Both the position numbers and the translations under genes were made by a program. Source: a virus. From it: a DNA stretch of 49,368 bases. Positions 704 through 45,900 of this stretch are shown here, in pieces (the stretch's first letter is position 1; the number at the start of each line of letters is the position of its first letter). The notes beneath the pieces are model-generated. The model worked only from the letters and a program-made list of their open reading frames with translations, was not told where the DNA came from and did not search any database. The stretch spans positions 1 to 49,368 of IMG/VR virus record IMGVR_UViG_3300034220_000009; one strand, written 5' to 3'.

Positions 704-979
704 CTAATCCTCCTGATCACCGATACGCATCATCGGCTCGCCTTCTTCATTGTCGACATCAATCTGACCTTGTGGGCCTTTGATATGGATCCGGCCGGCA
801 TTGAGCGTGTCGCCTAGATTACCGGACACACGCATCTCATCGAAGTTGATCTCCTGCGGTTTGTAGGCCCGCATCGTACCCACACTGCGCAAGCTGTTCT
901 CTATCGGCAAGCTGTTCAGAGTGCGGCGCATAAAGCCGTTATATCCGGCGCGCTGGTAGTCGTATTGCTGATCATCCAC
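704..979 (-). CDS. Hypothetical protein (91 aa)
   Basis: In-frame GTG at 979..977 overlaps the upstream stop (GTGGATGA), with GAGGAG about 10 nt upstream. The ATG-extended ORF 704..1060 would overlap the 663-aa gene by 89 nt. Confidence 0.45.
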   Translation of the reverse strand: MDDQQYDYQRAGYNGFMRRTLNSLPIENSLRSVGTMRAYKPQEINFDEMRVSGNLGDTLNAGRIHIKGPQGQIDVDNEEGEPMMRIGDQED

Positions 980-2963
980 TAGCAGGTGTCTCCTCGGAGA
1001 CATTGTACACCCACTCGATGCCCTCGATCTTTTGCGGGGCGCCTTCAGTAGATTGGTCAATGATCAGATCAGCAGTGCCGCCGGTAGGTATCTCAAGCCG
1101 GGGAGGGAACTCTATATATTCCTCTTCCTTCTGAATCTCACCGACTTCCTTGTGCTGGCCGTTGCCGACAGCGATCTTCACCTTCGCGCCTTTGGCGTTG
1201 TGTGATGTGATGATGACGCCGATGAACTTCTTCTTACGGCGCGTACCGAGATATGATCGTCCGGTCTGCTCCACGAAAGGAATGGACACACCGCCGTCAG
1301 TGTTGCCGGTGTCATCGATATAGAGTTTGCCGTCATCCGAGAAGAAATACGGCTTAACCGTACCGGTATAATCGTCAGTGCCTTGAAACAGTGCCTTCTT
1401 GCCAAGCGAATCAATGGCCCAGTTATTGTCATCAAAGCTATATACGATCCGAAGATTTTCATTACCACGTCCGACATCCACCGTGCCGAGATACAGCATG
1501 TAAGTGTTATTGATAACCGTGCTACTGCTAGTGATCAGATTGGCCTGCGGAACGTACTTCATGATCAGCTCGTACAAGCCGCGCGAAATGTATTCCTGCT
1601 GACCGGAGCTGTCGTTGCGCGCATGGATATGTCCCTTGGCGTCGACCCATACCAGCCAGTCATCATCGATATTCTGGATTGAGTGCGGCGCGATGCAACC
1701 GACGCTGCTACTGAATGTGACCATATTGCCGCCATCCCACTTTTGCGCGGAATTACGAGTGAAGACCACCAGACGATTGCTAGACTTACGCATCCCTGTG
1801 ATAGCGTTGCTGGAATCCGTACCGGGCCGTGTGCTTGTCCAATCAGCTCTTGCGGGTTCTGGGTGATCGATGTTCCAGAAGCGCGTCAGCAAGCCGTAGC
1901 GTCCGTCCAGCCACAGCTCATCGTTGTCGGCAAGGTTGTAATACAGGTTTAAAGTATGAGTACCAGAGCCGGTAGCTGTGATATCAATCGCCGTGCCGGC
2001 CGTGGCGAGAGCGGCCGTCGTGGCGAGCTTCATGGTCGTCGCGGAAAGATTGATGACGTAATACGTCGTACTGGCAGCCAAGCCTGTCGGCAATGTGCCG
2101 GTGGTAGAAACTTGTACCGGAGTGCCAGTAGGATAGAGCGTCGTGCTGGATACCGTCAGGATATCCGTAGTGGCAGCGGTGAACGTCTTCGTCTCACGAG
2201 TGAAGTACACGCGCTTGTTGGGACGATCAACCGACGTGATCGTGACGTCGTACAATTTTGTGCTGCCGCCGGCGGCGTAAATGTCGAGCATCATACCGGC
2301 CTTGAGGTAGCGCACCGAGTCGACCGTGATGTACGCCAACAGACCGTTGTGAGCGGCCTGTACGAATGTGATGCTGCCGAGCAAGCCAGATGACTTGTAG
2401 AGCCTATTGGGATAACGAACGCTATTGACCGTGACGTTGCCGGCGTACAGCGAACCGTTGAACTCTTCGATAAAGTAGGCGGCCGGCATGTTCAGGATGT
2501 TGCGGATCGCGGAGACGTCCAGAGTCTTGTCGACATTGTAGGCGTTCAGCGGAGCGCCGGTAGTAGCGTTGTAGCCGGAGATGTAGACCTCATCATTGTC
2601 GAGGAAGAAGAATACCTTGGCGTCAGCAGGATAACCGGTGACACTGGTCAGCGTCGTCCATGCGCCGGTAGCGGAATCCTGCACCCGGACAATCGTCGCC
2701 GTATCCGCATCATTGTTGACTGCTACGAACCTCTTGTTACCTGTAGTGAACCGGGCGATGAACGCGCCGGTCGGAGCATTACTGGCAGAGAAGACGCTGC
2801 CTACCTGCGTACAACCGTTGCGCCGAATGTATGATCCGAGCTGAATTCCAAAACGGCCATTGCGACCGTTGGCGAGTTCGTTCTGCTTCCGCATCGCTGG
2901 GTTGGTGGCGTATTGGATACCACCGCTAACATCCATCTGCGGGTAGTAGCGGATACCGCTCAC
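972..2963 (-). CDS. Large virion/tail structural protein (663 aa), possibly nozzle/tubular-B-like
   Basis: Uninterrupted ORF with a 4-nt overlap to the upstream gene. Composition is beta-rich (Ser/Thr/Gly/Asn). Function is guessed only from size and position after the fibre genes. Confidence 0.55.
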   Translation of the reverse strand: MSGIRYYPQMDVSGGIQYATNPAMRKQNELANGRNGRFGIQLGSYIRRNGCTQVGSVFSASNAPTGAFIARFTTGNKRFVAVNNDADTATIVRVQDSATGAWTTLTSVTGYPADAKVFFFLDNDEVYISGYNATTGAPLNAYNVDKTLDVSAIRNILNMPAAYFIEEFNGSLYAGNVTVNSVRYPNRLYKSSGLLGSITFVQAAHNGLLAYITVDSVRYLKAGMMLDIYAAGGSTKLYDVTITSVDRPNKRVYFTRETKTFTAATTDILTVSSTTLYPTGTPVQVSTTGTLPTGLAASTTYYVINLSATTMKLATTAALATAGTAIDITATGSGTHTLNLYYNLADNDELWLDGRYGLLTRFWNIDHPEPARADWTSTRPGTDSSNAITGMRKSSNRLVVFTRNSAQKWDGGNMVTFSSSVGCIAPHSIQNIDDDWLVWVDAKGHIHARNDSSGQQEYISRGLYELIMKYVPQANLITSSSTVINNTYMLYLGTVDVGRGNENLRIVYSFDDNNWAIDSLGKKALFQGTDDYTGTVKPYFFSDDGKLYIDDTGNTDGGVSIPFVEQTGRSYLGTRRKKKFIGVIITSHNAKGAKVKIAVGNGQHKEVGEIQKEEEYIEFPPRLEIPTGGTADLIIDQSTEGAPQKIEGIEWVYNVSEETPASG

Positions 2964-4162
2964 AGATGGAACCTTTTACGGAAAAGCGGACTGCGGCGTG
3001 GCGTGAAGCTCATCGGTGTACCGGCGTCCTTACGGTTGGCGCGTTGCATCTTGACGGCCTCATTGCCATACTTACCTTCCCACTGCTGGGCGAGACTGGC
3101 GAACTTTCCATCTGTCTCTGCCTTGGCGTGATAGTACTCTGCGCGGAACTTCATGCGATATATCAAAGAAGTTGGAGTAAGGACGCGATCAGCCAAACTA
3201 TCGAACTGCGGAAAATGCCGCCAGTAGTGTATCTCAATGCTGCCGGTCACATTAGTACGGGGCGCTGGGCCAAGATACAATCGGTTGCTGTCTTCATCGA
3301 GTGCGACGTCCAGTAGGTCGTCGCTATTCTGCCAGTTACCGCCACGATACTTCCGCACGAAAGCTTCGTACGTCAGTGGCTCTTCGATCTGGTAAGTACG
3401 GGTCACACCACCAAGAGTCCGGTTGTATGCCAAGAAGTTGAACTTCCAGAAGTCAGGCTCGTCGTTGGCGTCGAGACAGACCTGATCGAGATCGATGTAG
3501 TTGACGCCAGCCTGCGTGTCGACGGTAACGGACTTCTTGAGGAAGTCATACGGACGATGACTCTGGGTAGTCAGCTCATCATTCACCTCATTAGCCATGT
3601 CCATGTACTCTTCCGGTGTGAACATCGAGAATTGGGTGTCCCGAATACGACGAACATGGACATCGATCGCCGCGCCGATACTGCCGGCAGGATAACCGGT
3701 GGCAGACATTGGATCGGAGAAATCACTTTCTTCGCCGCTGGCACTATTAAAGAATTTGACCTTGTAGTAATTGGCACTTGTGCCGGTGACATCATCGTAG
3801 TAGGTAACGTGGTCATTGTTGTCGAAGTCTATGTTCTCAGTGGCGATCAGGGTGTAGCTGCCATCGATACTGTTGGCGCGGTAGAACTTCATCTGATTCC
3901 AGCGGAGTACATATACCGCGTCGTCGGCGTTATGTGCAAACTCTGTAGGATCAAAAAGGTTGATCGTCCCCTTACCTAAGATTCCATCAGTGATGAGCGT
4001 TTCAGTGCGCTCACCGCCATCTTCACCGACAAGAATAGCCAGATCAGCGGCAAAACGATCATTATTCTTCACGGAAAGCGTAGTTCGCCCGGCGGCATGG
4101 TCTTCCGAGAGGAAAGTCTTTTCAAGCTCACTAGTGCCGGGATTCATTGCGGGTACGTTCAT
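2960..4162 (-). CDS. Virion structural protein (400 aa) with N-terminal Ig/FN3-like segment, possible head-tail adaptor
   Basis: ORF in the structural operon. The segment YTLIATENIDFDNNDHVTYYDDVTGTSANYYKVKFFNSASGEESDFSDP looks like an FN3/Ig module. The role is positional inference. Confidence 0.5.
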   Translation of the reverse strand: MNVPAMNPGTSELEKTFLSEDHAAGRTTLSVKNNDRFAADLAILVGEDGGERTETLITDGILGKGTINLFDPTEFAHNADDAVYVLRWNQMKFYRANSIDGSYTLIATENIDFDNNDHVTYYDDVTGTSANYYKVKFFNSASGEESDFSDPMSATGYPAGSIGAAIDVHVRRIRDTQFSMFTPEEYMDMANEVNDELTTQSHRPYDFLKKSVTVDTQAGVNYIDLDQVCLDANDEPDFWKFNFLAYNRTLGGVTRTYQIEEPLTYEAFVRKYRGGNWQNSDDLLDVALDEDSNRLYLGPAPRTNVTGSIEIHYWRHFPQFDSLADRVLTPTSLIYRMKFRAEYYHAKAETDGKFASLAQQWEGKYGNEAVKMQRANRKDAGTPMSFTPRRSPLFRKRFHL

Positions 4163-4188
4163 AAGTGTTCCTGTCTGCTTTCAGCTTA

Positions 4189-7100
4189 CTATTTCAGCCG
4201 AGGTTTGTCACTTGAACCCATATGACGCAAACGCGGGAGTACGACCCGGTGAAAGAAGTTCGGCTGACGGTATCGTGTCAGCAGCTTCGGCTTTTCGCGG
4301 TAGTAACTACCGCCAATATAGGCGACGCCAGTCTGACTTTGTTGAACGGTCGCATAGATACGGGATCGGCCGGTTTGAACATGAAGCGTCACCGCCTGCA
4401 CGCGAGCAATGGCAGTCTGTGGTCGGGAGTAGCTGGCTTGAACGCGCGCCGCGCCGAGCTGGTCACGGGAGGTGATCGCCTGCACGCGCGCGACGCCGGT
4501 CTGATGATACGTCTGGACGACTACGACGGTTGCCTTGCCCGTCTGATCCTGCGTAACGGTGATGTGGATACGAGCTACGCCAGTTTGCGCGCGCGAGGTG
4601 TTCGTAGTGGTCAAGACGTGGGCTACGCCGGTCTGGTCGCGCGTAGTGGTTCCCGTCAACCGAGCTACACCCGTCTGGTCGCGAGTAGCTATCGCAAGGA
4701 TGCGGGCCGTACCCGTCTGCGCCTGAAGATTGACAATCTGAACGCGGCTGACACCGACCTGATTCCTACTGCTGGTCGCGGTCAGGCGAGCTACACCTGT
4801 TTGATTTTGACTGATGATCGCCAGTATCCGAGATTTTCCTGTCTGGTCTTGCGTAACGGGCCGTTGGATGCGAGACACGCCTGATATATCTTGAGCAACG
4901 TAATGATCGATCTTGGATACGCCGGTCTGGGTGCGCGTGAATAAGACGGCGACACGAGAGACGCCAGTCTGGTCACGAGTCGTAATCAGACTACCGAAGT
5001 CGAGGTTGAAGTAATCCGTACCAATGACGTGTGTTAACAGTGCGACGCCGGTCTGGATGCGACTACCGAGAATGACGAGGTTGGCTGCTCCCGTCTGATT
5101 GCGCGTAGCGACTACCTGCACGCGAGCCGCGCCAGTCTGGTCGCGAGAGATCGTAGTAGCGATACGTGCTGTCCCCGTCTGAAGACGTACCGTGGCAGCA
5201 GTAACACGAGAGACGCCGGTTTGCGTACGCGGCGTGGAAGCGGTCAGTCTAGCCTTACCGGTCTGATCTTGTGTACCGGTCGCCGTCACACGGCTTTTGC
5301 CTGTCTGGACTTGAGCGGCAGAAGCGGTGATACGGCTACTACCGACCTGCGTCTGTGATGCCGTCGCGGTGATCCGGCCCTTGCCTGTTTGAGTTTGTAA
5401 GGCTACAGCCGTAATGCGGCTCTTGCCGGTTTGAGCCTGTCCGACCACACTACTAATGCGAGAAACACCAGTTTGAGTGCGCGACGTCGTAGTGTCACTA
5501 GTCAGGGTGTTGAAAGTGTCAAAATAGGCTACCGTAGTGCCGACTTCAGGCCCGTATGCGCCGGCTGCGATACGAAGGTTTATATTGGTGACAGCGAACG
5601 GAGCGGCAAGGCTGGCGTAATTCGTCCAAGAACTACCGTCAGTAGAGTAATCCCAGTAGATCGTGCCAGCAGACTCACGGATTCGGAAGAACTTATGCAC
5701 AGCCGAGTTATAGGCCGTATCGTTGCGTTGGTCAGAGTAGCTGCCGGACACCTGCTTTTGAGCGACCAGCATACCGCCACCGATGATCCAAGACAGGGTA
5801 TTGGAAGCGTCGAGATACACCTGAACCGCAACAGCCTGAAAAGTCGGCAAGGACTGGTTGCCGGCGTTGACGAGCTGCGAATAAAGGTAGCTGCCGGTGA
5901 GGTTATAGTTGTTGACGCTCTTGTATGTCGAGTACACTCCGGATGACGAGACGTTCCCTAGTTCAAGCTGATTGTTCTGTTCAGCCCAGTTGCTACCTTC
6001 CGTATTCCACTTAGCAGTGTCGCGACTGTTGTCGTTGAAATTGTCTGTCAATGTCTGCGCCAAAGGAAGCGTTATATTAGCCTTACCCGTCTGCGTACGA
6101 TCTACCACGGAGCCAAGAATATTGGATACACCAGTTTGCAAACGGGATAGGGTAGCAAAGACACGGGCGATACCGGTCTGAGTACGGGTGGTCGTCACTG
6201 TACCATCATTGACGTGGGAGAATACAGAGAGTCCGACAAACTGGATCGTCGTATCGGCTGCGGCGCTAAGGTTTTTCGGCGTTATGCGTACACGGAAGTT
6301 GGCATTTGATAGTTCACTGACCGTGAAAGCGTGTCCCCATGCAGTCGGGCCGCCACCGACTTTGTACGTCTCTATCGCCACATCACCAAGCTTATTGGTC
6401 GGCTTCGCCGTAGTCCAAGAGGAACCGCCGTCCCAAGACAGTTCTACATCAATAAGAACCTGCGACGCATCTGCACTAGCGATAGCTTTGATAGTCACTT
6501 CAATGTCGTCAATGGTATGCCCGGCCAAGTTCGTGATGCCGAAATCCTTCAGGGTGAAAGGGCTGTTGGTCGACACGTCAGTTCCGACCGCACTACTGGC
6601 GTCGTCCGCGTACACGTTGCTAATATTCGCCCACGCCGCCGCGACATTCTCGCTCGCGCTAGGAAGATAGCTGTTGCTTACGCCGTCATACGTCACCGAC
6701 AGCTGCGCGTCGTTGGAAGTCTCGGACATGTCTACAGACAATGTAGTGGTCAGACCGGGAGTGTGCATCACGAAGAGTACAGCGTTTCCGGGAGTCCACC
6801 CTGCACGACTTACTACGGTTTGAAGGATTGAAGATACGTCGAATTCATACCATCCATCAGGAAGATCGTCGGTACGAATCTGTGCCGCCGGAACAGATGA
6901 AGTCAGCGTACGAGAAGAAATGTCATTGACGGTAGTGGTCAATGCCGGCGCGGTGTCGGCGTCTTGCGCACTCAGACTCCATATACCACCAGAAGATGTC
7001 GCGACGCCAGAAAGCCGCAAACGTAACTTGGCAGAACGAATTGTCGCGCCCTGCGGAGCGGTCAAGCCGGTGAAACGAAACGCGATCCAACCGTAGCTAG

Positions 7101-7203: not shown

Positions 7204-9239
7204 TACTGATACACCCTTACATGAACTGCGTTATCGCTATCATAGTAGTTAGCAACATCGGTCGCGATAGAAGCCGTTAAGGTAATTTCGACATTCGAGG
7301 CAGTACTATTGTCGGTATCGATCGTCTCCCACGATCCACCAGCCACATTGTATATCTGCATATAAATCGGGCTAGAAGTGGTCGGCCGGGACGTCCGGCC
7401 TTTCCAAGTTGGTGTTAGCGGTGAAGTGTTAGTGGAGTGCGGAACGGAGAAGAGGTGTACGCCGTACAACTTGTCCTGCGTAAGATCAACGAACGAATCG
7501 TTGTCGGCAGCAGCGTCGGTCATCTGTACGCCGCTATAAGATGCAGCGAGCGACGTCTTGCCGGTGGGCAAGCTGGCAAGAGATTCTTTGGTATACAGCG
7601 GGGCAAGGATGCGTGCCGCGCCAGTCTGCGCGCGCGAAGTAGTACCGGTGGGGATATCAACGCTAGCAACGCCTGTCTGATTCTTGGTAGCCGTAGCGGT
7701 CAGCCGGGCCACGCCAATTTGTGACTGCTGTACGCTGGCAGTTACACGGGCCTTACCCGTCTGATCCTCTGATCTTGTCGTCAGGATTCGGGCAGTACCG
7801 AGTTGCAGCCGAGAGACTACCTCTTGCACGCGGGCGATGCCAGTCTGCGTACGAACAGCCTGTATTTGGACTCGGGAAACGCCTGTCTGAGTGCGAGGTG
7901 TAACAGTTTCCGCAACTTCAATAGCAGATGTGCCGAGTTGATCGCGGCTAGAAACGGTTTCAAGACGTGATTTACCTGTTTGGTCTTGCGAAGCGACGGC
8001 TTCTACTCGGGCCTTGCCCGTCTGATCCTGCGTGGTGGTGGTGTCGCTACTGCCGCCGGTCTTCGTAGTAACGATACGGGGAGTGACGGCGTTGGGGATG
8101 ACGACTCCGTTGCGAAGAACCCGGAAATCAATAGTGTCATTGTGGTCAACTTCTGCTGCTACGACTGTAATGGAATAGAGAAGCTCCATGTAATTACTGG
8201 CCGTGAGCTGTTTGCTGGTCACTAGACCTGTTTCAGAGATTTCACCGGCTACAAAGCTACCCGAGCCGCTACCTAATCTGTTGGTAGTCACGGTATCGTT
8301 TGCCAGGGACGCTGAAGCGAAGCCTAACACTGCGCTACTGCCAGTGGTAACGTCCGTATATGTGCCTCCATTCAGAGAATATTGGAGCCGGTAGTCGTCG
8401 ACTACGTTTCCAAAAACACCCGCTGTTTCCTGTATGCGGACTCTGACTTGTAGACTGCTGTCGCTGTCCAGTAAACGAGCGATCTGGGTGTTCTGAGCGT
8501 CAATCGCCGTCGATGTCGTTTCCGCGCCATCTTCGTAGAAGCAATAGGCTGCCAACTCAATCACCATAGGAGAGTTTTTTAGGGCAATAGTATAGCAAGT
8601 ATCTGTAGTGCTAGCCGACTTGCTCCGAATCGTAACGCCGATATCTTTAGGGGACAGGCAAATAGCTCGCGCTATTTGATAGCCGCCGCCATTTCCCTCG
8701 ATGAAGTTGAAGTCTACGATCTCGGATATGGAAGTAAGGTTAGCGTTTACGGGGTTGCCGAACTGAGTGCTGTTACCGTCGTCATTAGGTCTAGCCGTAA
8801 TGAAGAAGATGCTCGTATCAGGAACAGTCGTGGTCACGGCAGGTGAAGTTGCCGTGGTGCTGGGTGTCGACTTCACACTGGCAGCGATGCCGTCAAAGAA
8901 ATCTTCGGTGGGGTGAAGGTTTCTCCAAACAAATATACGACCAGAAACATGGTCTGTGCCCGGGCCGACGGTAACTGCTGGCTCTGAAGTAGTGGTCACT
9001 CTTTTCCAAAAAACATGCAGTTTGCTGCCGGCTGTAGTAGCGACATCAGTAATGGGCGAACCCGTTAGCGTAGTCCAACCCGTCGGCGCTGCAATATCGG
9101 CCGAGTTTCCTGATGTCTCGACTATCAAAAAACCTACATCGTTGAACGTAGTGCTAAGGCCAGTCGGCCATACAACCGAAACCGCAGCGCCCGTGCTGTT
9201 CGTCGCACTGCCTCTATCGAAGTATGCTGGCGCTGACAT
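7203..9239 (-). CDS. Tail fibre/tail spike-like protein (678 aa) with about 10 copies of the same 14-aa repeat
   Basis: ORF whose TAA overlaps the ATG of the next fibre gene (TAATG at 7201..7205). The central repeats read QDQTGKARVEAVAS/QDQTGKSRLETVSS/.../RAQTGAARILAPLY. Confidence 0.7.
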   Translation of the reverse strand: MSAPAYFDRGSATNSTGAAVSVVWPTGLSTTFNDVGFLIVETSGNSADIAAPTGWTTLTGSPITDVATTAGSKLHVFWKRVTTTSEPAVTVGPGTDHVSGRIFVWRNLHPTEDFFDGIAASVKSTPSTTATSPAVTTTVPDTSIFFITARPNDDGNSTQFGNPVNANLTSISEIVDFNFIEGNGGGYQIARAICLSPKDIGVTIRSKSASTTDTCYTIALKNSPMVIELAAYCFYEDGAETTSTAIDAQNTQIARLLDSDSSLQVRVRIQETAGVFGNVVDDYRLQYSLNGGTYTDVTTGSSAVLGFASASLANDTVTTNRLGSGSGSFVAGEISETGLVTSKQLTASNYMELLYSITVVAAEVDHNDTIDFRVLRNGVVIPNAVTPRIVTTKTGGSSDTTTTQDQTGKARVEAVASQDQTGKSRLETVSSRDQLGTSAIEVAETVTPRTQTGVSRVQIQAVRTQTGIARVQEVVSRLQLGTARILTTRSEDQTGKARVTASVQQSQIGVARLTATATKNQTGVASVDIPTGTTSRAQTGAARILAPLYTKESLASLPTGKTSLAASYSGVQMTDAAADNDSFVDLTQDKLYGVHLFSVPHSTNTSPLTPTWKGRTSRPTTSSPIYMQIYNVAGGSWETIDTDNSTASNVEITLTASIATDVANYYDSDNAVHVRVYQ
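7593..8030 (-). repeat. Tandem 14-codon QTG repeat array (about 10 units) inside the 678-aa fibre gene
   Basis: Residues 404-549 of the 678-aa ORF. Same consensus as the array at 4300..5481: [RQ]-x-Q-T-G-x-[AS]-R-[VIL]-x5. Confidence 0.85.
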
Positions 9240-19862: not shown

Positions 19863-20330
19863 TAACAGGGGTCAGATAGGCATACTTGAAATTTTTTGTA
19901 GGTATGGGGGCGGTGAGGAGGCTATCTATATAGATATCGACACCGGCCGCAAGCTTTTCCGGGTGGCGGGGGGGTTCGAGGTCGCCTGTTGACAAGAGGT
20001 TAATATCATTACAGAACGATACACTCACCCCTGTTAAAGATGATGTATATACACGGCCATAATGGGCGGCATACGCTACAGATGGCACGAAATACGGGGC
20101 GCTGACCCCTGTTAGCGTCGCACATTCATCATTGTGCGCCTTCAACGCCAACGCATCACCTTGAGACACGACCATTAACAGGGGTGGAAGCAGGGCGAAA
20201 TCCATTCACCCCCGTTGAATGTCCGCATAATCTACCCATTGATTAACACTCATATACACACGATCTATTTGTATACGTGTATGTATATATGTGGATAAGT
20301 TAGCACGGGCTGGATTCGTAACCCCTGTTA
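19863..20330. repeat. Iteron array: five exact ACCCCTGTTA 10-mers in both orientations plus one degenerate copy
   Basis: Plus orientation at 20027, 20105 and 20321. Minus orientation (TAACAGGGGT) at 19863 and 20176. Degenerate ACCCCCGTTG at 20208. Confidence 0.85.
19923..19936. repeat. 14-bp perfect palindrome TATCTATATAGATA
   Basis: Read directly. It sits between A/T tracts (AAAAAATTTT near 19846, AAATTTTTT near 19890) in the control region. Confidence 0.8.
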
Positions 20331-20340
20331 CTCTACGTTG

Positions 20341-20370
20341 TCCGCACATTGGTATTGACAATCTCCGCAC
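20341..20370 (+). promoter_or_regulatory. Pair of TCCGCAC heptamers (23-bp spacing) flanking the -35 of the early promoter
   Basis: TCCGCAC at 20341..20347 and 20364..20370. An inverted partial copy GCGGACA lies at 20392..20398. Confidence 0.7.
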
Positions 20371-20383
20371 GCTGGCAGATACT
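20355..20383 (+). promoter_or_regulatory. Rightward early promoter (sigma70-type)
   Basis: TTGACA (20355..20360), 17 nt, GATACT (20378..20383). It is the first plus-strand signal upstream of the early operon. Confidence 0.65.
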
Positions 20384-20510: not shown

Positions 20511-20669
20511 ATGCGTGATATCTACCCATCAATCAAAGCACGGCAGGATAGCCGGACAGGATTGACCCAGCGGCAGATGGCAATCATTGACGGCATGTAC
20601 GGCGCTTGCGTCGTCATCAGCATGACGGTCATCGGCTGGACGGGATACACCCTACTAGCGCTAATCTAG
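20511..20669 (+). CDS. Small membrane protein (52 aa), first early gene
   Basis: GGAGG lies 8 nt upstream of the ATG. MRDIYPSIKARQDSRTGLTQRQMAIIDGMYGACVVISMTVIGWTGYTLLALI. It is below the ORF-track size cut-off. Confidence 0.6.
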   Translation: MRDIYPSIKARQDSRTGLTQRQMAIIDGMYGACVVISMTVIGWTGYTLLALI

Positions 20670-20740
20670 CGGAACGCTAGGCCGCCGGAACACTCCGGCA
20701 GCCTGTGGGCTTCACTAGTCCAGTACATTCACAAACAATA
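20667..20740 (+). repeat. Conserved early intergenic cassette, copy 1
   Basis: TAGCG-GAA-CGCTA (20667..20679). Hairpin GGCCGCCGG-AACACT-CCGGCAGCC (20680..20703). Then TGTGGGC, CACTAGTC (20713..20720) and TACATTCACAAACAAT (20724..20739). Confidence 0.85.
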
Positions 20741-20741
20741 A

Positions 20742-20755
20742 TTGCGGACAGATTG
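20742..20755. repeat. Inverted repeat A, left arm (TTGCGGACAGATTG)
   Basis: Perfect reverse complement of 21079..21092. It extends to 17 bp if one G-U pair is allowed. Confidence 0.9.
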
Positions 20756-20778
20756 TCAATCATAACGAAAGGACAATC

Positions 20779-21054
20779 ATGTTAGTACCAATTATCGAGC
20801 AAATGGAAGTCAGCGACATACATGCTTTAATCGGCATGAGCGTCATACTATTTGTAAAGATGCGGCTAGCAGGCGTGGACGTTGTAGTAAGCGGCAGTTA
20901 CGATATTGCCACGAACAACTTTAGTCCTACAGCCATACAGCAGGACGCCAGCGATGCAGGCACAAGTATAAAAGACTTTTGCGAATCGATGGAATGGGAT
21001 ACCGTAGGCACTCGACGTGAGATACAGCTAGCTGTAAACAACCGAGACTACTAG
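20779..21054 (+). CDS. Early hypothetical protein (91 aa)
   Basis: AAAGGA RBS upstream. The ORF is bracketed by inverted repeat A. Confidence 0.65.
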   Translation: MLVPIIEQMEVSDIHALIGMSVILFVKMRLAGVDVVVSGSYDIATNNFSPTAIQQDASDAGTSIKDFCESMEWDTVGTRREIQLAVNNRDY

Positions 21055-21078
21055 CAGCACGTCACCCATTGTGGGTGG

Positions 21079-21092
21079 CAATCTGTCCGCAA
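21079..21092. repeat. Inverted repeat A, right arm (CAATCTGTCCGCAA)
   Basis: Reverse complement of 20742..20755. Confidence 0.9.
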
Positions 21093-21108
21093 GCGAAAGG
21101 GGTAATCC

Positions 21109-21252
21109 ATGGGTATGACCTATGAATTGCAAGGCACTTTACCAACCGTACGGACTCTGACAGCGGAGGACTACGCATTTATAGATGCGTGCGCCACGCC
21201 TTACGAGCCTATGCCGACAGTATCGGCGGCAGATATGGCGGTGGCACTATGA
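21109..21252 (+). CDS. Early hypothetical protein (47 aa)
   Basis: AAAGGGG RBS. MGMTYELQGTLPTVRTLTAEDYAFIDACATPYEPMPTVSAADMAVAL. The stop overlaps the next start (ATGA). It is preferred over the GTG-extended frame of ORF 21189..21617. Confidence 0.5.
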   Translation: MGMTYELQGTLPTVRTLTAEDYAFIDACATPYEPMPTVSAADMAVAL

Positions 21253-21617
21253 AGGCGTTTAACTTCATCACGATGACAGAGTACGGCGGCCGCAACGCAC
21301 TGTTGGAAGGCAACGGCGATTTACCGGCGTTTGCATCATTCAATCAATTGCGTGATAGCGGCTATATGGTGAAAAAAGGCGCAAAATCCGTCAGTATCTT
21401 TTGCGGCTATCGCCAGCGGAAGGATAAGACAACAGGCAAGATGACGACAGTACCCACGTCCGGCCGAGTGTTCGACATCATCGACACGACCGCCGCCGAC
21501 GATAAGGGATATATAAAACATCTGAAGGCCGAAATCAAAAAAGGTAGGGTCAAGCCATCGCCAGCCGAAGCCGAAGCAATGGCAGGGGCGGCAGTGATGG
21601 AAGCATTGACAGCCTAG
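21249..21617 (+). CDS. ArdC-N (DUF1738)-like ssDNA-binding/antirestriction-type domain protein (122 aa)
   Basis: GGRNALLEGNGDLPAFASFNQLRDSGYMVKKGAKSVSIF resembles the ArdC N-terminal pattern (...G-x-N...-F-x-Q-...-G-x-V-x-K-G-E-K), from motif memory. Confidence 0.45.
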   Translation: MKAFNFITMTEYGGRNALLEGNGDLPAFASFNQLRDSGYMVKKGAKSVSIFCGYRQRKDKTTGKMTTVPTSGRVFDIIDTTAADDKGYIKHLKAEIKKGRVKPSPAEAEAMAGAAVMEALTA

Positions 21618-21686
21618 CAGAGCGCTACAGCGCCGGAATACTCCGGCACTGTATGGGCTTTACTAGTCCAGCACATTAAAACTAAT
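21615..21686 (+). repeat. Conserved early intergenic cassette, copy 2
   Basis: Starts on stop codon TAG. TAGC-AGAGC-GCTA. Hairpin CTACAGCGCCGG-AATACT-CCGGCACTGTAT. Then TGGGC, TACTAGTC and CACATTAAAACTAAT. Confidence 0.85.
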
Positions 21687-21699
21687 CAGAGGTAATAGC

Positions 21700-21906
21700 A
21701 TGTACATAGCTATCAGCCAATTTAATGACGTGGTGGTTTTGAACAAGCACCCGCGCAAGGAATTGCGGGATCTATACGGCCGTTCGGAACATACGAAGAT
21801 ACAGAAAATGTATCGAGATAAGGCCGACGGCGGCAGTAAACACGTCGGTTACGTTATCGACGGCTTATGGTTCACCTTATTTGAAGCCAAGCCATACGAA
21901 CGATAG
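21700..21906 (+). CDS. Early hypothetical protein (68 aa)
   Basis: AGAGG RBS. ORF ends in the TAG of cassette 3. Confidence 0.65.
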   Translation: MYIAISQFNDVVVLNKHPRKELRDLYGRSEHTKIQKMYRDKADGGSKHVGYVIDGLWFTLFEAKPYER

Positions 21907-21979
21907 CGACGCACTACAGCGCCGGACACTCCGGCGTTGTATGGGCGGCACTAGTCACCCAGTACTTTAATAAACAAAT
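21904..21979 (+). repeat. Conserved early intergenic cassette, copy 3
   Basis: Starts on stop codon TAG. Hairpin TACAGCGCCGG-ACACT-CCGGCGTTGTA. Then TGGGC, CACTAGTC and TACTTTAATAAACAAAT. Confidence 0.85.
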
Positions 21980-21998
21980 CTTGTGCGCTCATTGTCAG
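21980..21998. repeat. Inverted repeat B, left arm (CTTGTGCGCTCATTGTCAG)
   Basis: 19-bp perfect reverse complement of 22264..22282. Confidence 0.95.
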
Positions 21999-22018
21999 TA
22001 ATAAGACAAGGGGCGTAT

Positions 22019-22243
22019 ATGTACAATCTAATCGATATCAGTCAAAACACGAACATTGACCAAGCGTCAGAGCTTGTGGACTTGTTCCGCAAGCTGGACA
22101 AATACACCGAAGCAGGCAAGCCGGTAGTCATCGTAAAAGATGGCGAAATCAAGGCCGGTAACAGTCTGGCGTGGTCATGGTCAAGGGTTCATGACTTTCA
22201 GATAGGCGAGGGCATGGAGTACCGGCCATATACGAACGATTGA
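22019..22243 (+). CDS. Early hypothetical protein (74 aa)
   Basis: ATG 22019 is preceded by AAGGGG. The ORF is bracketed by inverted repeat B. Confidence 0.65.
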   Translation: MYNLIDISQNTNIDQASELVDLFRKLDKYTEAGKPVVIVKDGEIKAGNSLAWSWSRVHDFQIGEGMEYRPYTND

Positions 22244-22263
22244 TACACGCCAGCGGTTTACCG

Positions 22264-22282
22264 CTGACAATGAGCGCACAAG
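22264..22282. repeat. Inverted repeat B, right arm (CTGACAATGAGCGCACAAG)
   Basis: Reverse complement of 21980..21998. It is preceded by the local hairpin CAGCGG-TTTA-CCGCTG (22251..22266). Confidence 0.95.
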
Positions 22283-22316
22283 AGTAAGGGCGAAAGCCTA
22301 GAAAACGGAGCAAATC

Positions 22317-22721
22317 GTGATAGAACCTCTGACGAAATCAGAACGGGAAGAAACGGCGGCCGAATTGCGCAAGCTGTTACGTGGGCATCATGAGATATTG
22401 ACACTTGCGGAATGGCGAGGTAGCACGGCATATGTACGGCTATTCATCGTCAAACACAATCGACTGATTAACATCACGTCAAATGCAGGTGTGGCGATGG
22501 GCGAACGCATCAGCCACCGGCCAAGTCAGCCGTACGGATTCAAACGGGGCGGCTACGGATACGGACGTGAGTTTGATGTAGTGTACGGACTAGGCCGGAC
22601 GCTGTACCCAAAAGGCCACAAGCACACCGTGAAGCATTGTCACAGCAACGATCATAGCAACGGCGACAAACGTGCATGGCATCCTGACGGCGGTTACAAA
22701 TTTAATCAGCGAAGTATCTAA
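22317..22721 (+). CDS. Early hypothetical protein (134 aa)
   Basis: GTG start with GGAG 7 nt upstream. His/Gly/Lys-rich C-terminal half. Confidence 0.6.
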   Translation: MIEPLTKSEREETAAELRKLLRGHHEILTLAEWRGSTAYVRLFIVKHNRLINITSNAGVAMGERISHRPSQPYGFKRGGYGYGREFDVVYGLGRTLYPKGHKHTVKHCHSNDHSNGDKRAWHPDGGYKFNQRSI

Positions 22722-22951
22722 TGGCAGATAGCAAATACTATCAGGTAGTGCGATTCAGTCAAAAAAACGGACGTGGCAGAGTGCAGGCCAAGAATCTTAC
22801 GCTAGAACAGGCGAGAAAATGGTGCAATGACCCGCAAACGTCCAGCCATACAGCGGACAAGCCGCGCGGATGCGGCGGCGATGAAGCGATGATACAGCGA
22901 TGGAACGAAAAAGATAAACACTGGTTTGACGGCTACGAACAAATGCGATAG
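22721..22951 (+). CDS. Early hypothetical protein (76 aa)
   Basis: TAATG overlap with the upstream gene. Ends in the TAG of cassette 4. Confidence 0.65.
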   Translation: MADSKYYQVVRFSQKNGRGRVQAKNLTLEQARKWCNDPQTSSHTADKPRGCGGDEAMIQRWNEKDKHWFDGYEQMR

Positions 22952-23020
22952 CGGCACGCTAGGCCGTCCCACAGCGGGGCGGCCAATGGGTGACACTAGT
23001 CATCGGAACATTTAAACAAT
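22949..23020 (+). repeat. Conserved early intergenic cassette, copy 4
   Basis: TAGCG-GCA-CGCTA. Hairpin GGCCGTCCC-ACAGC-GGGGCGGCC (different stem sequence, same pairing). Then ATGGGT, CACTAGTC and AACATTTAAACAAT. Confidence 0.85.
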
Positions 23021-23030
23021 AGGGGGCTGT

Positions 23031-23387
23031 ATGTCAAAAGACGTTGCAGTAATACGAGACAATGACGACAAGTATATGTATCTGGTCGGTACTGATTATC
23101 CGATTGATACGCCACGGTTGGAAGAGGTCGGATACAAGCTGGAGGGCTGGCTAAGGCATAGCGAACAGTGGCAGGCCGATGATGGTTTGTACGATAAATC
23201 GGAGCCGGATAACGACCTGCTGGACGATGAGTCATACCACGGACCGCTATTCACGAACTGTATGCACCAGGTCGACCCGAACGACAAGACAGACAGCGGA
23301 TTGTGCAATGTGATGATAGCAATGTCATATGAAGGCGGCGCGCCGACATATTGCACACCGCACGAAGAATTGCACGAAGACGAATAG
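23031..23387 (+). CDS. Early hypothetical acidic protein (118 aa)
   Basis: AGGGGG RBS. Ends in the TAG of cassette 5. Confidence 0.65.
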   Translation: MSKDVAVIRDNDDKYMYLVGTDYPIDTPRLEEVGYKLEGWLRHSEQWQADDGLYDKSEPDNDLLDDESYHGPLFTNCMHQVDPNDKTDSGLCNVMIAMSYEGGAPTYCTPHEELHEDE

Positions 23388-23454
23388 CGATACGCTAGGC
23401 TGGCCGAACTATCGGCCGGCCGGTGGGTATCACTACCCGAACATTAACAATTTT
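23385..23454 (+). repeat. Conserved early intergenic cassette, copy 5
   Basis: TAGCG-ATA-CGCTA. Hairpin GGCTGGCCGA-ACTA-TCGGCCGGCC. Then GTGGGT, CACTACCC and AACATTAACAATTTT. Confidence 0.8.
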
Positions 23455-23469
23455 AGTGGAGGTTTGCAC

Positions 23470-23682
23470 ATGCGGACACTTCTATCAAACATAACGCCGG
23501 ACTGGCGTGGTCAACTCGTAAGCGCATCCGATGAATACGATGCAGCACGGATAGGACGAGAGGTTAGTATCAAGTCGCTAGTCAGAGGACGACCGGCGCA
23601 CTATAGCGAGGAACGGAACGGCGAAAAGTGTAGCATCATAATCTATTGCTTCGGCAACGTCTACGAGTTGCGAGCGGCATGA
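23470..23682 (+). CDS. Early hypothetical protein (70 aa)
   Basis: ATG 23470 is preceded by GGAGG. The longer ORF from 23329 runs through cassette 5. Confidence 0.6.
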   Translation: MRTLLSNITPDWRGQLVSASDEYDAARIGREVSIKSLVRGRPAHYSEERNGEKCSIIIYCFGNVYELRAA

Positions 23683-23723
23683 GATATGGCTGGCAAGCGA
23701 TACTAGCGGCTGGCGCTATCTGG

Positions 23724-24026
23724 CTAACCGTCGCCGTCAACACTGTCCGACGGCTGGCCGGTTGAGCAAACGGCGTTCATACAAACCCCATTAACTTCTA
23801 CACGAGAGCAGGCCGGACACAATCCGGCCTGTATCTTTTTATCATCAATGATCGCGGAGCGTCGCTGGCGGTAAATGCGCTTCGGAGCCTTACCCATATC
23901 ATCCATATGCAGCCGCACGAGCCTGTCACCGTACGCTATATCAACATATGCGCCGGTGTCACGCATGAGCCGGGTGAATATGTGGAAGTGTTTTTTAAAC
24001 TGATACAGCGTCAAGGGGCGCGCCAT
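23724..24026 (-). CDS. Hypothetical protein (100 aa) with C-terminal Cys cluster
   Basis: CPACSRVEVNGVCMNAVC suggests a zinc-ribbon-like motif. It is the second gene of the leftward island. Confidence 0.55.
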   Translation of the reverse strand: MARPLTLYQFKKHFHIFTRLMRDTGAYVDIAYGDRLVRLHMDDMGKAPKRIYRQRRSAIIDDKKIQAGLCPACSRVEVNGVCMNAVCSTGQPSDSVDGDG

Positions 24027-24591
24027 TGTTCAGCCTTACGATTATCTGATTGATTGTAATAGTGTCACCGTTTTTGATAGCTTCGGCCAGTGTTTGTGCG
24101 GCGCGCGCGTCGGCGGCGGTAGGGGTAACGGAGCCAGAGGGAGCCACCGCGCCGGGGCCGTCCTTGGTCTGGTTGTGCATCTTCTCAGTGACTTGGAGTA
24201 CATCTTTGACTGACAACTCAAGCAAACCGGCTTTTTTCCGTTTGTAATCAGCAAGTGTCATGTCTCCGTTGCGATACTCTTCATCAATGGCTGACAACTC
24301 AAGCTCATCGCCTGCCGCCTGATCCAGTTTGCGGCTCAACAGTCGAAGTGACTTCGCTCTGATCCGCTCCGCTTCAGACGCTTCCGCCTGCACTACCGTT
24401 CTTTCGATCTCAGCAATGACTTCCGGATTGCGTTTGCGCAGCATGGACAGTGCGTTGTTACTGTACTCAACGCCGTAGTTGTCCAGCAGGAACTTCCTGA
24501 TCTGCTTATACTTCTCGCCTCGCACCATCATGGCAAGGACTTGGATTTTCATAGGGTCGGTGATCTTTGGAGAGGTGAGCGCCTGGGTCAT
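23995..24591 (-). CDS. Putative HTH DNA-binding protein (198 aa), either a regulator or a small-terminase-like protein
   Basis: Start MTQALTSP at 24591, chosen because a -10 lies 6 nt upstream. The N-terminus KIQVLAMMVRGEKYKQIRKFLLDNYGVEYSNNALSMLRKR is HTH-like, followed by a coiled-coil middle. Confidence 0.5.
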   Translation of the reverse strand: MTQALTSPKITDPMKIQVLAMMVRGEKYKQIRKFLLDNYGVEYSNNALSMLRKRNPEVIAEIERTVVQAEASEAERIRAKSLRLLSRKLDQAAGDELELSAIDEEYRNGDMTLADYKRKKAGLLELSVKDVLQVTEKMHNQTKDGPGAVAPSGSVTPTAADARAAQTLAEAIKNGDTITINQIIVRLNNGAPLDAVSV

Positions 24592-24597
24592 GTGCCT

Positions 24598-24606
24598 AGT
24601 ATACCA
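24598..24606 (-). promoter_or_regulatory. Extended -10 promoter (TGGTATACT) placed for a leaderless mRNA
   Basis: Minus strand: TCCGCAC, 15 nt, TATACT, aggcac, ATG. The 6-nt gap between -10 and ATG is identical in length to that at the Phd-like gene. Confidence 0.5.
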
Positions 24607-24607
24607 C

Positions 24608-24636
24608 TTGCTCTTTAAGTGCGGATAGCGTATAAT
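24608..24636 (+). promoter_or_regulatory. Rightward promoter of the replication operon
   Basis: TTGCTC (24608..24613), 17 nt, TATAAT (24631..24636). The spacer contains GTGCGGA, the reverse complement of TCCGCAC. Confidence 0.5.
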
Positions 24637-24643
24637 GCAGCTT

Positions 24644-24687
24644 AACTTCAAGGTGTCGCAACCCTGAAGTTACATTCACAAAACAAG
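24644..24687 (+). promoter_or_regulatory. Leader hairpin plus ACATT/AACAA box (sixth box copy)
   Basis: AACTTCAAGG (24644..24653) pairs 9/10 with CCCTGAAGTT (24662..24671). It is followed by TACATTCACAAAACAAG. The 12-mer TACATTCACAAA is identical to cassette 1. Confidence 0.6.
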
Positions 24688-42900: not shown

Positions 42901-45900
42901 CTATCTGGCAGTTCTCATCTGTTGTTCTTCCTCTTCCTGCTTGGCACGATCACGGGCGTTCCGTCGCCGGCTGCGGACTGCGCGACGGTTGAGGTTGAGC
43001 TTCTGTTGGTCGTACATCTCTTGCATCTGTGGCGTGGCCTTGGAGCCATGCTGTTCAGCCCACGGCTTGAAGCTCTGGGCCAGTTGTTGATTGTACTCAT
43101 CCGCGATCTGACGTGCCGTGGTGGTGTCGCCAGCCGCGATAGCTTCGTTGATACGCTTGCTCGCGCCAGCACGGAGCTTGGCCGTCTTGTCGAGCGTCTT
43201 GTAGAACTCATCCTTTTCTGCGCCACCACGCGCGCCGGTGAGTGCATCACCCACGCCGGAAACGGGATTGCTGGTGAACAGGTTGCCGGTCAGGGAGCGG
43301 ATAGCGGAATCGGTCTTGATCGGGGATCCACCGGTCAGGCCGGAGACAAGCTTCGCCGCGGTGCTGGTACTATCGCGTACCTGCATCTCGTCGGGAAGAT
43401 CTTCCATACCTTCCGGTACGATAGGTGAATCGAAGTACAGATTATGATTGGCGACGTTCTCTATCGGTGCTTTGATCGCTGGGTTGAGCAGACTGCCGGC
43501 GGTACGGCTTAGGTTGAACTTGCCGTCTTTGATAGTATCGATCGGCAGGACGCTACCAACCGCAGATAGGGCCGTCTCCCAAGCTGTCTTATCCGGTTGT
43601 CCGCGCAGATGGGCTAATATGCTTTCAGTAATGTTGCCGAATACCTTGTCCGGTTCGTTCTTCGGCAGCTTCAGTACTTGATCGTAGTTGCCCTTCTCGT
43701 CCTTCTTATCTCCCAGCACAAGAATGAAGTTGTTATCCTTCACATCTTGGCTGATCGAATCGTAGACTTCAGGGTATTGCGTGGTGTTCCATGCGTACAC
43801 GCTGGCAGCTGGGACAGCGATGTTGCTGGTAATCGCGACAGCTGCACGCTTCGGGTTGTTCTTGATGGCTGAGATGACATTCTTGTTACCTTGCAAACGG
43901 GTATTCAGGAAGAGCAGGTAGTCGTTCAACACGCGGCCTTCCTTACCGAAATTGGCGAAGTCGACCGTTACGGAGCGCGCGCCACGGGCAGCATCTTCGA
44001 TAGTGCCGCCAGCTTCCTTGATCGCCCGGGCTTCAGCCAGACGTGGCGCGTACTCAATAGCGCGGCCGGCAGCTTCAACACCACCGTACGCCTTGCCTAA
44101 GATACGGGTGACTTCATCCCACATGCCCTTCGGCGTAGTGATGTCCGGGCCGTTCACTTTACGGTCAAGGTCTTTGATGAGGTTACGGGACTTGTCGTAG
44201 TCGTTATAGATACCCCCGCCACCGCCGCCGGCAGATCGGACTTCCTTCGAGAGTTTGCTGTCGGTAGCCGCGTCAATGAAACCTTGCGCCCAGCGCTTCA
44301 TGTATGGTAGGACGGTGACATACTCCCACACGGGGATAGCCTTCGACGTGATAGCCGTCTGCCGGGCATCACGGATCGGGTTCTTGACGAATTGGAACGG
44401 CAGCGAGAGTGTCGTGACGGCAGCACGGAGCGGTTGTGCGACGTACTTAGCCACCTTACCGACAGTATCGCGCTGTGCTTCATTGAGGCCCATCCACGTA
44501 TCTGCAATCTCTTCCGGCAAGGCGATGCGTTCTTGGACGCCCTTGCGGATACGGCTGACCGCCTTGTAACCCTTGGGTACGTCTTTGTCGAGCAAGGTCT
44601 GGAACTCGTCCTTGTTACGGCTGATCGTTTCCAGCGCGTCATCGTAGTCCAGTGACAGGGCTTCCAGATCATCTAGCAACTCTGTCATGCGGCCTTCGCG
44701 GCTGCCGACCTTCTTCTTGAGCTTCTGGATTTCAGACAGTGGCGCTTCGACCAGCGAGCGCACGAACGCCGCCGTATCCTGCGGGCCGAGCTTGCTTGGA
44801 TTGACGGGAATTTCATCGCCAATCTCCTTGAGGATCGCCCGTTCTTCTGTCGAGGTAGGAACATTCTTGCCGGCTTGCGAGGTGGGGACCTTGCCGCCCA
44901 GTCCGGACGACGTGAACTGCGGCGTTGAATCGACGCCACCCTTCTTGAGTGATAGCTTCAGACCCTCTTTCTCGAAACGGTTGACTTCACTTTGCAGACG
45001 ACGGAGCCAGCGTTCGCGAGTGCCGATCAGCTTATCTACCTTGTTGGCGACCTTCCGGAGTTCGCGGTTCTCGCTGGACAAGCTCATGCGTTGCAGTACG
45101 TCATCGGCATTGCGAAGAGGAACGACCAGCGACGGATCGATTTCTTTGAAGCGCTCGGCCGCATCGAACATCTTGGACTTGTTGACGCGATCCATCACCG
45201 AACGGGTGGTATTGAGCATCGATTCCAGTGGATCGAGAATTTCGTACTGCTCGTCCTGCATACCTTTGACGGCCTGCAATATCTTATCCTTCGATGAGCT
45301 GCGGCTACCGACCGAGAACGCCTGCCGGTTTGAACCGTTGGCGAGGTATTCGACAACATTGCGCTTGGAGAAAAAGTTCGGATTCGTTTCCTTGATCTTG
45401 CTGTACGCCTCTTCCGTCAGGTCGCCACTGTCGACGAGCATCCGGAGCAGGGTGTCGTGGTGATTACGTACTGCGTTCACGGCAGCTTCAGCCTGTTCAA
45501 CCTCTTCGGGGCGGCGCTTCGACCGGATGGCTTGGATAGCGGCTTCGGCACGTTGCACGATCTCCGGGGCATACTTGTCAGCACGGTCAAGAATCTGCTG
45601 CGACTCACCCAATACCCGTACGTCATCCGTACCGCCCTTATAGAGTCCACCCAGTGCATCCATGACCGGAGCGATCTGTTCGCGGTTGGAGTCGTCCAGT
45701 CCATTAGCCAACTGTCGCCATGCGGCAGGATCATCAGCCGCCGCCAGCTTCCCACCGGTCTTCTCGGTGTAGCGACGGGAGAACTCATCAAGCGGTGCGT
45801 CACGGTTGAACAAGCCTTCATAGACACGCTGACGCCAGCCCTTCTTGGCCTGCATAGCTTCGACCTGCTCACCACTCCGCATCCGGGCCAGTACATCCTC

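Follow-up and report, generated by a model that had tools for sequence, protein, structure and literature searches.

The phage genome held in the IMG/VR virus record IMGVR_UViG_3300034220_000009 (positions 1 to 49,368; this whole stretch of 49,368 bases is referred to below as the window) carries five copies of a cassette of about 75 nt between its small early genes. Each cassette is one bipartite hairpin, built of a lower stem, an internal loop and an upper stem, and its fold, its covariation and its likeness to the early processing sites of phage T7 indicate that it is probably an RNase III processing signal of the T7 type, acting on the early polycistronic mRNA of an uncultured phage clade unrelated to T7. 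The window is an almost complete phage genome (its terminase is located on a 49,382-bp contig), and it encodes terminase, portal, capsid, helicases, a replication-initiator-like protein and an amidase. The cassettes occupy a block of 3.3 kb with ten small genes on the plus strand.

Copies, placement and fold of the cassettes

The five copies, whose starts had been correctly located in the first-pass annotation, all lie on the plus strand, and no others occur in the window (Table 1). The motif TGGGNNNNACTA was matched five times in the whole window, against 0.74 matches expected and with none of the shuffles reaching five; the matches, at 20706, 21654, 21942, 22987 and 23424, are confined to the plus strand. 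A second pattern, TAGCGNNNCGCTA, scanned with at most one mismatch allowed, recovered the same five sites. When aligned, the cassettes span about 75 nt with a mean column identity of 75%. All five are intercistronic and in sense orientation within one early operon, between a promoter-like site and a terminator, and the TAG with which each of them begins is the stop codon of the upstream open reading frame (ORF) in five of five cases, as had been noticed from the start.

The cassette had initially been divided into a mini-hairpin (TAGCG-NNN-CGCTA, part 1), a GC-rich hairpin (part 2) and, after these two hairpins, a linear CACTAGTC box (part 3). RNA folding of single copies gave two competing pictures, and in copies 2 and 5 the minimum free energy (MFE) structure pairs the stop-codon segment with part 3 and encloses the GC-rich hairpin. 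The bases formerly taken for the mini-hairpin loop pair with the variable bases of part 3 (GGAAC/GCTTC, AGAGC/GCTTT, GACGC/GCGGC, GGCAC/GTGAC and GATAC/GTATC in copies 1 to 5, respectively), so that parts 1 and 3 are the two strands of a single lower stem around part 2, and the linear box proved to be the wrong fold. This lower stem comprises nine positions (TAGC+N5 / N5+ACTA), the fourth of which is a conserved C·A mismatch, and its partner strand (N5-ACUA) is located about 35 nt downstream of the stop-codon strand. It is followed by a small asymmetric internal loop with conserved bases (GC/AC then UA on the 5' side, ..UGG on the 3' side), by a GC-rich upper stem of 10-12 bp, and by an apical loop of 3-5 nt; the whole helix measures about two turns.

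Within the five window copies, the lower stem (columns 1-9 with 43-51) contains three covarying pairs, with 92.5% of cells paired. The mini-hairpin, with 92.0% of cells paired, is perfect in only three of the five copies, being broken in copies 2 and 3, and shows no compensatory change at all. As to the GC-rich hairpin, the earlier description holds: its pairing is kept while its sequence changes, with both sides altered at six pairs, and copies 3-5 each have one G-U pair while copies 1 and 2 share a C·A mismatch (pairs 16-35, 17-34 and 19-32). In the alignment of 13 members (A3), which includes copies from related phages and was fitted to the model, a bias from which the five-copy counts above are free, seven of the eight lower-stem pairs covary (87.5% of cells paired) and covariation is seen at all 12 upper-stem pairs. 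Taken as a whole, the structure displays changes on both sides at 19 of 20 pairs with 88.4% of cells paired, a value which falls to 33-46% if the 3' strands are shifted against their partners by 1-3 columns, and none of 500 shuffles matched the observed structure score. The mini-hairpin, in the same 13 members, has 10 unpaired cells and two isolated double changes. Covariation thus persists with added homologues, and the suggestion that selection acts on structure is borne out.

Relatives and the early RNase III sites of T7

Neither INPHARED nor IMG/VR contains a close DNA relative of this phage. The scan of IMG/VR for the cassette pattern yielded two chance matches only, a relaxed pattern applied to IMG/VR and metagenomes single-copy chance matches only, and the terminase-based IMG/VR search no match. 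Terminase homologues of 57-72% identity are located on contigs of up to about 48 kb, which have the same gene order as the window. A covariance model (R1, hereafter the cassette model) was built from the five window cassettes alone and, as the first-pass annotation had proposed, related contigs were searched with it. Matches were obtained in L246 (E 2.5e-9), L249 (1.7e-6), L008 (1e-5), L251 (three copies) and L003 (two copies). All eight copies are on the early-gene strand and six of them begin on the stop codon of a called upstream gene, the exceptions being the L008 copy, which has no called upstream gene, and one L003 match situated just past the stop. The lower stems of the relatives have new sequences with complementarity kept (e.g., GGUAC/GUAUC and UUCUAC/GUAGAA), and in L249 the C·A mismatch is replaced by a U-A pair. 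More distant intergenic regions (L003b, L004b and L006b) harbor long irregular hairpins of unrelated sequence, which start on or right after the stop codon; the contigs of two further relatives, L007 and L009, stop short of the early region.

The early operon (20511-23682) is a region of ORFans. Nine of the ten early operon proteins gave no tblastn match in nine related loci, the sole shared one being the product of the last gene (23470-23682; 27-41% identity), whereas the helicase is 58-66% identical in the relatives and the neighbouring replication genes are conserved. The strongly acidic protein of 118 aa encoded between cassettes 4 and 5 (23031-23387) had no homologue among 5.8 billion proteins; as an ORFan, it could not lead to relatives when used as the query.

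In T7, the early precursor of about 7000 nt, a host-transcribed polycistronic mRNA, is cut by Escherichia coli RNase III at five signals located between its genes (PMC3867540), just as five intercistronic cassettes are found here. The T7 region 400-7000 was taken, its five intergenic sites were folded, and the cassette model was run unfiltered on these 6.6 kb; a second model (R2, hereafter the T7 model), constructed from the five T7 sites only (alignment A5), was run unfiltered on the whole window. The cassette model ranked T7 site R0.3 first (21.1 bits, E 0.0014), R1.1 second and R0.5 fourth, all in register. Reciprocally, the top four matches of the T7 model in the 49-kb window were cassettes 4, 2, 3 and 5, in full length and in register (E 0.001-0.09), with cassette 4 as the best match. 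On 93.5 kb of related phages the T7 model produced exactly three matches, which are the cassettes of L008, L246 and L249.

The folds agree to the same degree. The MFE structure of R0.3, (((.(((((.(..(((((((((....)))))))))...).))))).))), is also the dot-bracket string of cassette 5 and of the L246 copy, except for the length of the upper stem (one extra pair in cassette 5), and the loops of T7 R1.1 are arranged in the same way. T7 is cleaved at coordinates 890 and 1468, in agreement with the cut positions in these folds. T7 sites and cassettes both have about nine positions, one of them mismatched, in the lower stem, 9-12 bp in the upper stem, a small asymmetric internal loop between the two stems and 3-5 nt in the apical loop. 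They also agree in AG.. / ..CU at the foot of the helix and, within the internal loop, in CU on the 5' strand and AUG on the 3' strand. In particular, the lower stems of R0.3 and cassette 1 both contain UAGCGGA / UUCACUA, C·A mismatch included.

Searches of Rfam returned no match in the whole window at the gathering thresholds and, at E<=5, a single chance match to OxyS (17.5 bits against a threshold of 75). No Rfam family matches the T7 sites either, and the empty result for the window is therefore uninformative.

Proposed processing and its alternatives

An idealized RNase III substrate has 22 bp, corresponding to two helical turns, and internal loops confine cutting to one strand, leaving protective 3' hairpins that stabilise the upstream product (PMC3867540, PMC1540722, PMC6993053). 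By analogy, host RNase III would bind the helix formed by the lower and upper stems and cut its 3' strand only, at the conserved U↓GGG, the restriction to a single strand being, we infer, due to the internal loop. Since the T7 cut UAU↓GAU aligns opposite this conserved U↓GGG, a cut position can be predicted for each of the five cassettes (Table 1). The upper hairpin would become the 3' end of the upstream message and guard it against 3' exonucleases, and the TAGCG/CGCTA mini-hairpin might re-form next to it. Together with bases further downstream, the freed 3' strand would form a new hairpin (GGGxx...xxCCC) that opens the next message, ahead of an unstructured A/U-rich leader (ACAUU..AACAAU) and the ribosome binding site. 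As a net result, every small early gene would be placed on a message of its own and shielded from the genes on either side. Probably, as a by-product, the conserved cassette would also offer a homology patch for the swapping of unrelated early genes.

When folded, the fragment predicted to start at GGG forms a hairpin beginning at nucleotide 1 or 2 in all 13 members (about 2% of shuffles do equally well per sequence), and the inner pairs of this hairpin vary between members (GGGUA/UACCC, GGGCU/AGCCC). In the upstream fragment, the mini-hairpin stands beside the upper hairpin in 8 of 13 MFE folds. According to these folding predictions, the mini-hairpin and the third hairpin (hp3) may be folds of the cleavage products, a role which would explain why their sequences are conserved despite competing with the lower stem. 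A more far-reaching view, tentative and on balance doubtful, sees in the cassette a portable RNA-processing module that insulates itself and refolds in a programmed way. Pairing of the stop-codon strand with the ACUA strand would present an RNase III site before the cut; after it, the two strands would form separate hairpins capping both messages, the mini-hairpin with the upper stem at the new 3' end and GGG..CCC at the new 5' end. Such a module may be ancient and mobile, moving along with ORFans from one phage family to another, unrelated one, an idea that draws on its conservation, which exceeds that of the intervening genes, and on the helix base it has in common with T7 R0.3.

Several observations weigh against RNase III processing. 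The isolated MFE folds of cassettes 1 and 3 lack the full lower stem (for cassette 3 alone the MFE favours the upper stem plus hp3), and competing folds, namely the mini-hairpin and hp3, exist. The pair counts of alignment A3 lean towards the model structure to which it was fitted. The T7 model, listing matches with E<=10, missed cassette 1, alone among the five, and the E-values are modest and come from a shortened calibration. The internal loop reads GCUA / UGG in the cassettes and ACUCAA / UUUAUGA in T7. Finally, E. coli RNase III favours A-U or U-A at positions pb2-4 of the proximal box and UA/UG in the distal box (PMC1540722), whereas the cassettes, mapped via the T7 alignment, have G-C or C-G at pb3 in all five copies and at pb2 in three, and their two loop-proximal pairs depart from the canonical UA/UG, so that binding or cleavage by an E. 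coli-like enzyme could be poor. The pair beside the predicted cut, A-U or a mismatch, is acceptable under the same E. coli rules, which may not be those of the host in question. The search for the host gave no match in E. coli genomes, and only one match, of 23% identity, in the scan of GTDB genomes.

Among the roles originally listed for the element, an RNA processing site, the first named, is favoured by the evidence. Attenuators or antiterminators and promoter-proximal elements gained no support: no sigma-70-like promoter was found in the cassettes, and RNA polymerase families had no match among the six ORFs of at least 590 aa, searched in PHROGs (all six) or Pfam (four, of 663, 678, 1004 and 1346 aa). 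A binding site for a phage protein, likewise on that list, is among the less likely alternatives considered below.

The alternative that survives best, although we consider it unlikely, is that the cassettes are sites for another RNA-level factor, such as RNase E, a phage-encoded nuclease or an RNA-binding regulator; RNase E would cut the A/U-rich tail, and the hairpins would be mere decay barriers. RNase E prefers RN↓WUU, to which ACAUU conforms, but this motif is very low in information. A conserved unstructured A/U-rich tail does follow the hairpins in both the window and the relatives, hairpins protect 3' ends independently of which nuclease cuts, and the GC-rich upper stem is suboptimal for E. 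coli RNase III (PMC1540722). What this explanation leaves unaccounted for is the covarying long-range lower stem with its internal loop of fixed geometry, and the specific recognition of the cassettes by profiles of T7 RNase III sites.

Still less likely is a mobile cassette similar to the PeSL elements, with an internal promoter and a terminator or attenuator, whose main role would be transcriptional insulation and recombination between ORFan genes. The conservation of the cassette amid early proteins of which nine in ten have no homologue in the relatives speaks for it. However, the promoter scan detected no sigma-70-like promoter in any cassette, and hexamers picked out by eye are irregularly spaced or would exclude the ribosome binding site. 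Between TGGG and ACATT the distance is 16-21 nt, a variation of 5 nt, and in cassette 4 the end of AACAAT is separated from the ATG by 10 nt, within which the ribosome binding site lies. Nor are the cassettes intrinsic terminators, a point on which the first-pass annotation was right. None of them is found among the plus-strand terminator-like sites, and the U-tract that is absent after every cassette is present in the operon's own canonical terminator; since the operon ends in the latter, the host polymerase seems to use ordinary terminators, and elements devoid of a U-tract are not among them. A role in recombination, moreover, could coexist with RNase III processing and is no substitute for it.

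A DNA-level binding site for a phage repressor or regulator is very improbable. Such a site would resemble stoperator-like sites, which overlap stop codons: the cassettes are one-directional, overlap stop codons in the early operon, and contain the palindrome ACTAGT. On the other hand, the compensatory changes in two stems denote single-strand pairing and not a fixed duplex consensus, the relatives keep the fold with entirely different stem sequences, and the cassettes match RNA processing sites of T7. The least credible proposal is that part 3 (e.g., GGTGACACTAG) is a promoter for a single-subunit phage RNA polymerase of the T7/SP6 type: the motif recurs before early genes, and cassette 4 shares 10 consecutive bases with the SP6 promoter core, but no such polymerase was matched in the six ORFs of at least 590 aa, C would stand at +1, the covariation between the bases preceding ACTA and those 35 nt upstream is a signature of RNA pairing, and CACUA also occurs in the lower-stem 3' strand of T7 R0.3, which is not a promoter. 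The SP6-like GGTGACACTA was dropped as a phage-polymerase promoter in view of the missing polymerase match and of the upstream covariation of its variable bases. A tRNA-like reading of the three hairpins was likewise rejected, as ARAGORN found no genes.

The early operon and known systems

Judged from its sequence, the operon appears to run from the promoter-like site at 20355-20383, where the early polycistronic transcript presumably starts, to the terminator at 23808-23840. The features of this region are collected in Table 1.

Table 1. Cassettes and other features of the early operon; positions refer to the window, and cuts and product hairpins are predictions.
Feature	Position	Strand	Lower stem (5' / 3' strand)	Predicted cut	Predicted 5' hairpin of product	Cassette model (bits)	T7 model (bits; E)	Remarks
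Sigma-70-like early promoter	20355-20383	+						TTGACA-17-GATACT; 10/12 consensus positions; only strong plus-strand promoter-like site upstream of the operon
Cassette 1	20667-20739	+	20667-20675 / 20709-20717	20706/20707 (U↓GGG)	20707-20721	90.1		upper stem ~20678-20705; A/U-rich tail to 20739; TAG ends ORF 20511-20669
Inverted repeat 1, 5' arm	20742-20765	+						24 nt, 83% complementary; directly after cassette 1
Inverted repeat 1, 3' arm	21069-21092	+						duplex -33.6 kcal/mol; arms enclose ORF 20779-21054
Cassette 2	21615-21687	+	21615-21623 / 21657-21665	21654/21655	21655-21669	87.2	21.4; 0.0063	bipartite hairpin is the MFE structure; TAG ends ORF ending at 21617
Cassette 3	21904-21978	+	21904-21912 / 21945-21953	21942/21943	21943-21960	78.5	20.0; 0.015	TAG ends ORF 21700-21906
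Inverted repeat 2, 5' arm	21979-21998	+						20 nt, 100% complementary; directly after cassette 3
Inverted repeat 2, 3' arm	22264-22283	+						duplex -35.9 kcal/mol; arms enclose ORF 22019-22243
Cassette 4	22949-23022	+	22949-22957 / 22990-22998	22987/22988	22989-23004	73.0	24.2; 0.001	MFE of the 50-nt hairpin is bipartite; TAG ends ORF 22721-22951
Cassette 5	23385-23455	+	23385-23393 / 23427-23435	23424/23425	23425-23438	78.2	17.3; 0.09	TAG ends ORF 23031-23387
Canonical intrinsic terminator	23808-23840	+						10-pair stem plus T-run; only qualifying terminator in this operon

Two fragments had been reported alongside the cassettes, a partial sixth mini-hairpin at 23704-23718 (TAGCG-GCTGG-CGCTA) and TAGCGCTA at 20656-20663. 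Both are present in the sequence, but they went undetected by the cassette model and by the T7 model; being devoid of an upper stem and of the ACUA strand, they are possibly remnants or chance matches.

Each of two long-range inverted repeats encloses an entire small early gene, ribosome binding site included, and gene-enclosing repeats of other sequence occur in relatives (at 7015/7604 in L003, and at 5558/5904 and 6328/6461 in L008). Their duplexes could be targets of double-strand cutting by RNase III, and with 20-24 bp they fit a transcript rich in double-stranded RNA targets.

The motif TAACAGGGG occurs six times in the window against 0.19 expected. Five copies, in both orientations, are clustered at 19863-20330, a stretch of 470 bp that immediately precedes the early promoter, and the sixth is at 40680; they look like operator or iteron sites of a divergent control region. 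Another motif, TGCGGACA, is found near the early promoter and within both arms of the first long-range repeat (20220, 20339, 20743 and 21084), and also at 23471. Its genome-wide count is not significant (5 against 2.3 expected), and the related ATGCGGACAT is repeated at the early promoter of the relative L003 (~8940-8987). This clustering and the conservation across phages suggest a regulator site.

On the minus strand, ORFs of 100 and 218 aa (23724-24651) converge on the early operon at its terminator and are placed opposite the replication-initiator-like gene (24853). All relatives have the 218-aa protein (28-44% identity), for which no family match was found. An ORF of 1346 aa (42901-46941, minus strand) contains an LPD38 'large polyvalent protein' domain and has a weak match to the C-terminal part of a PHROG profile of 3427 positions.

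RNase III also cuts the long processing stems that flank 16S and 23S rRNA, as well as the stem of lambda sib. The duplexes 20742/21069 and 21979/22264, known here by sequence, resemble these stems, which flank functional RNA and are cut on both strands; unlike them, the phage duplexes enclose small protein-coding genes.

The PeSL cassettes of T4-type phages border ORFans in an early region of high variability and carry a GC-rich stem-loop, as the cassettes described here do, and are possible recombination linkers (PMC2839356, PMC4122927). Both elements are repeated, intergenic, and span the interval from the stop codon to the Shine-Dalgarno sequence. The PeSL is defined, however, by a strong sigma-70-like promoter and a terminating stem-loop (PMC2839356), neither of which was detected in our cassettes, which have instead a bipartite helix of the RNase III type. 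The evolutionary side of the PeSL idea may nonetheless apply, and the coexistence of a conserved cassette with unshared ORFans provides a clean case in which to ask whether regulatory repeats drive gene shuffling.

Signals of the T7 type have so far been treated as a trait of T7 and its relatives. The phage studied here is unrelated to T7, its terminase being less than 30% identical to that of any catalogued phage and its six largest ORFs having no RNA polymerase family match, and the occurrence of the same design in an uncultured clade without the T7 machinery suggests a general phage means of splitting early operons into separately stable messages. The cassette model and the T7 model can be used to annotate such sites, for which Rfam has no family, in metagenomic phages, and the cassettes could serve as compact insulator parts in synthetic operons. 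The design common to T7 and this clade extends to bases at the foot of the helix and in the internal loop, and both make contact with stop codons: in T7, the UGA of gene 0.4 lies within the lower stem of R0.5, and site R1 starts right after the stop of gene 0.7, whereas in the cassettes the stop is always UAG and always provides the first three bases of the helix. The cassettes differ from the T7 sites also in their far more GC-rich upper stem, with G-C where E. coli RNase III prefers A-U, and in possessing a conserved alternative hairpin, hp3, and possibly the mini-hairpin, which could form after cleavage and which bring within reach of experiment the idea that cleavage products are capped at both ends.

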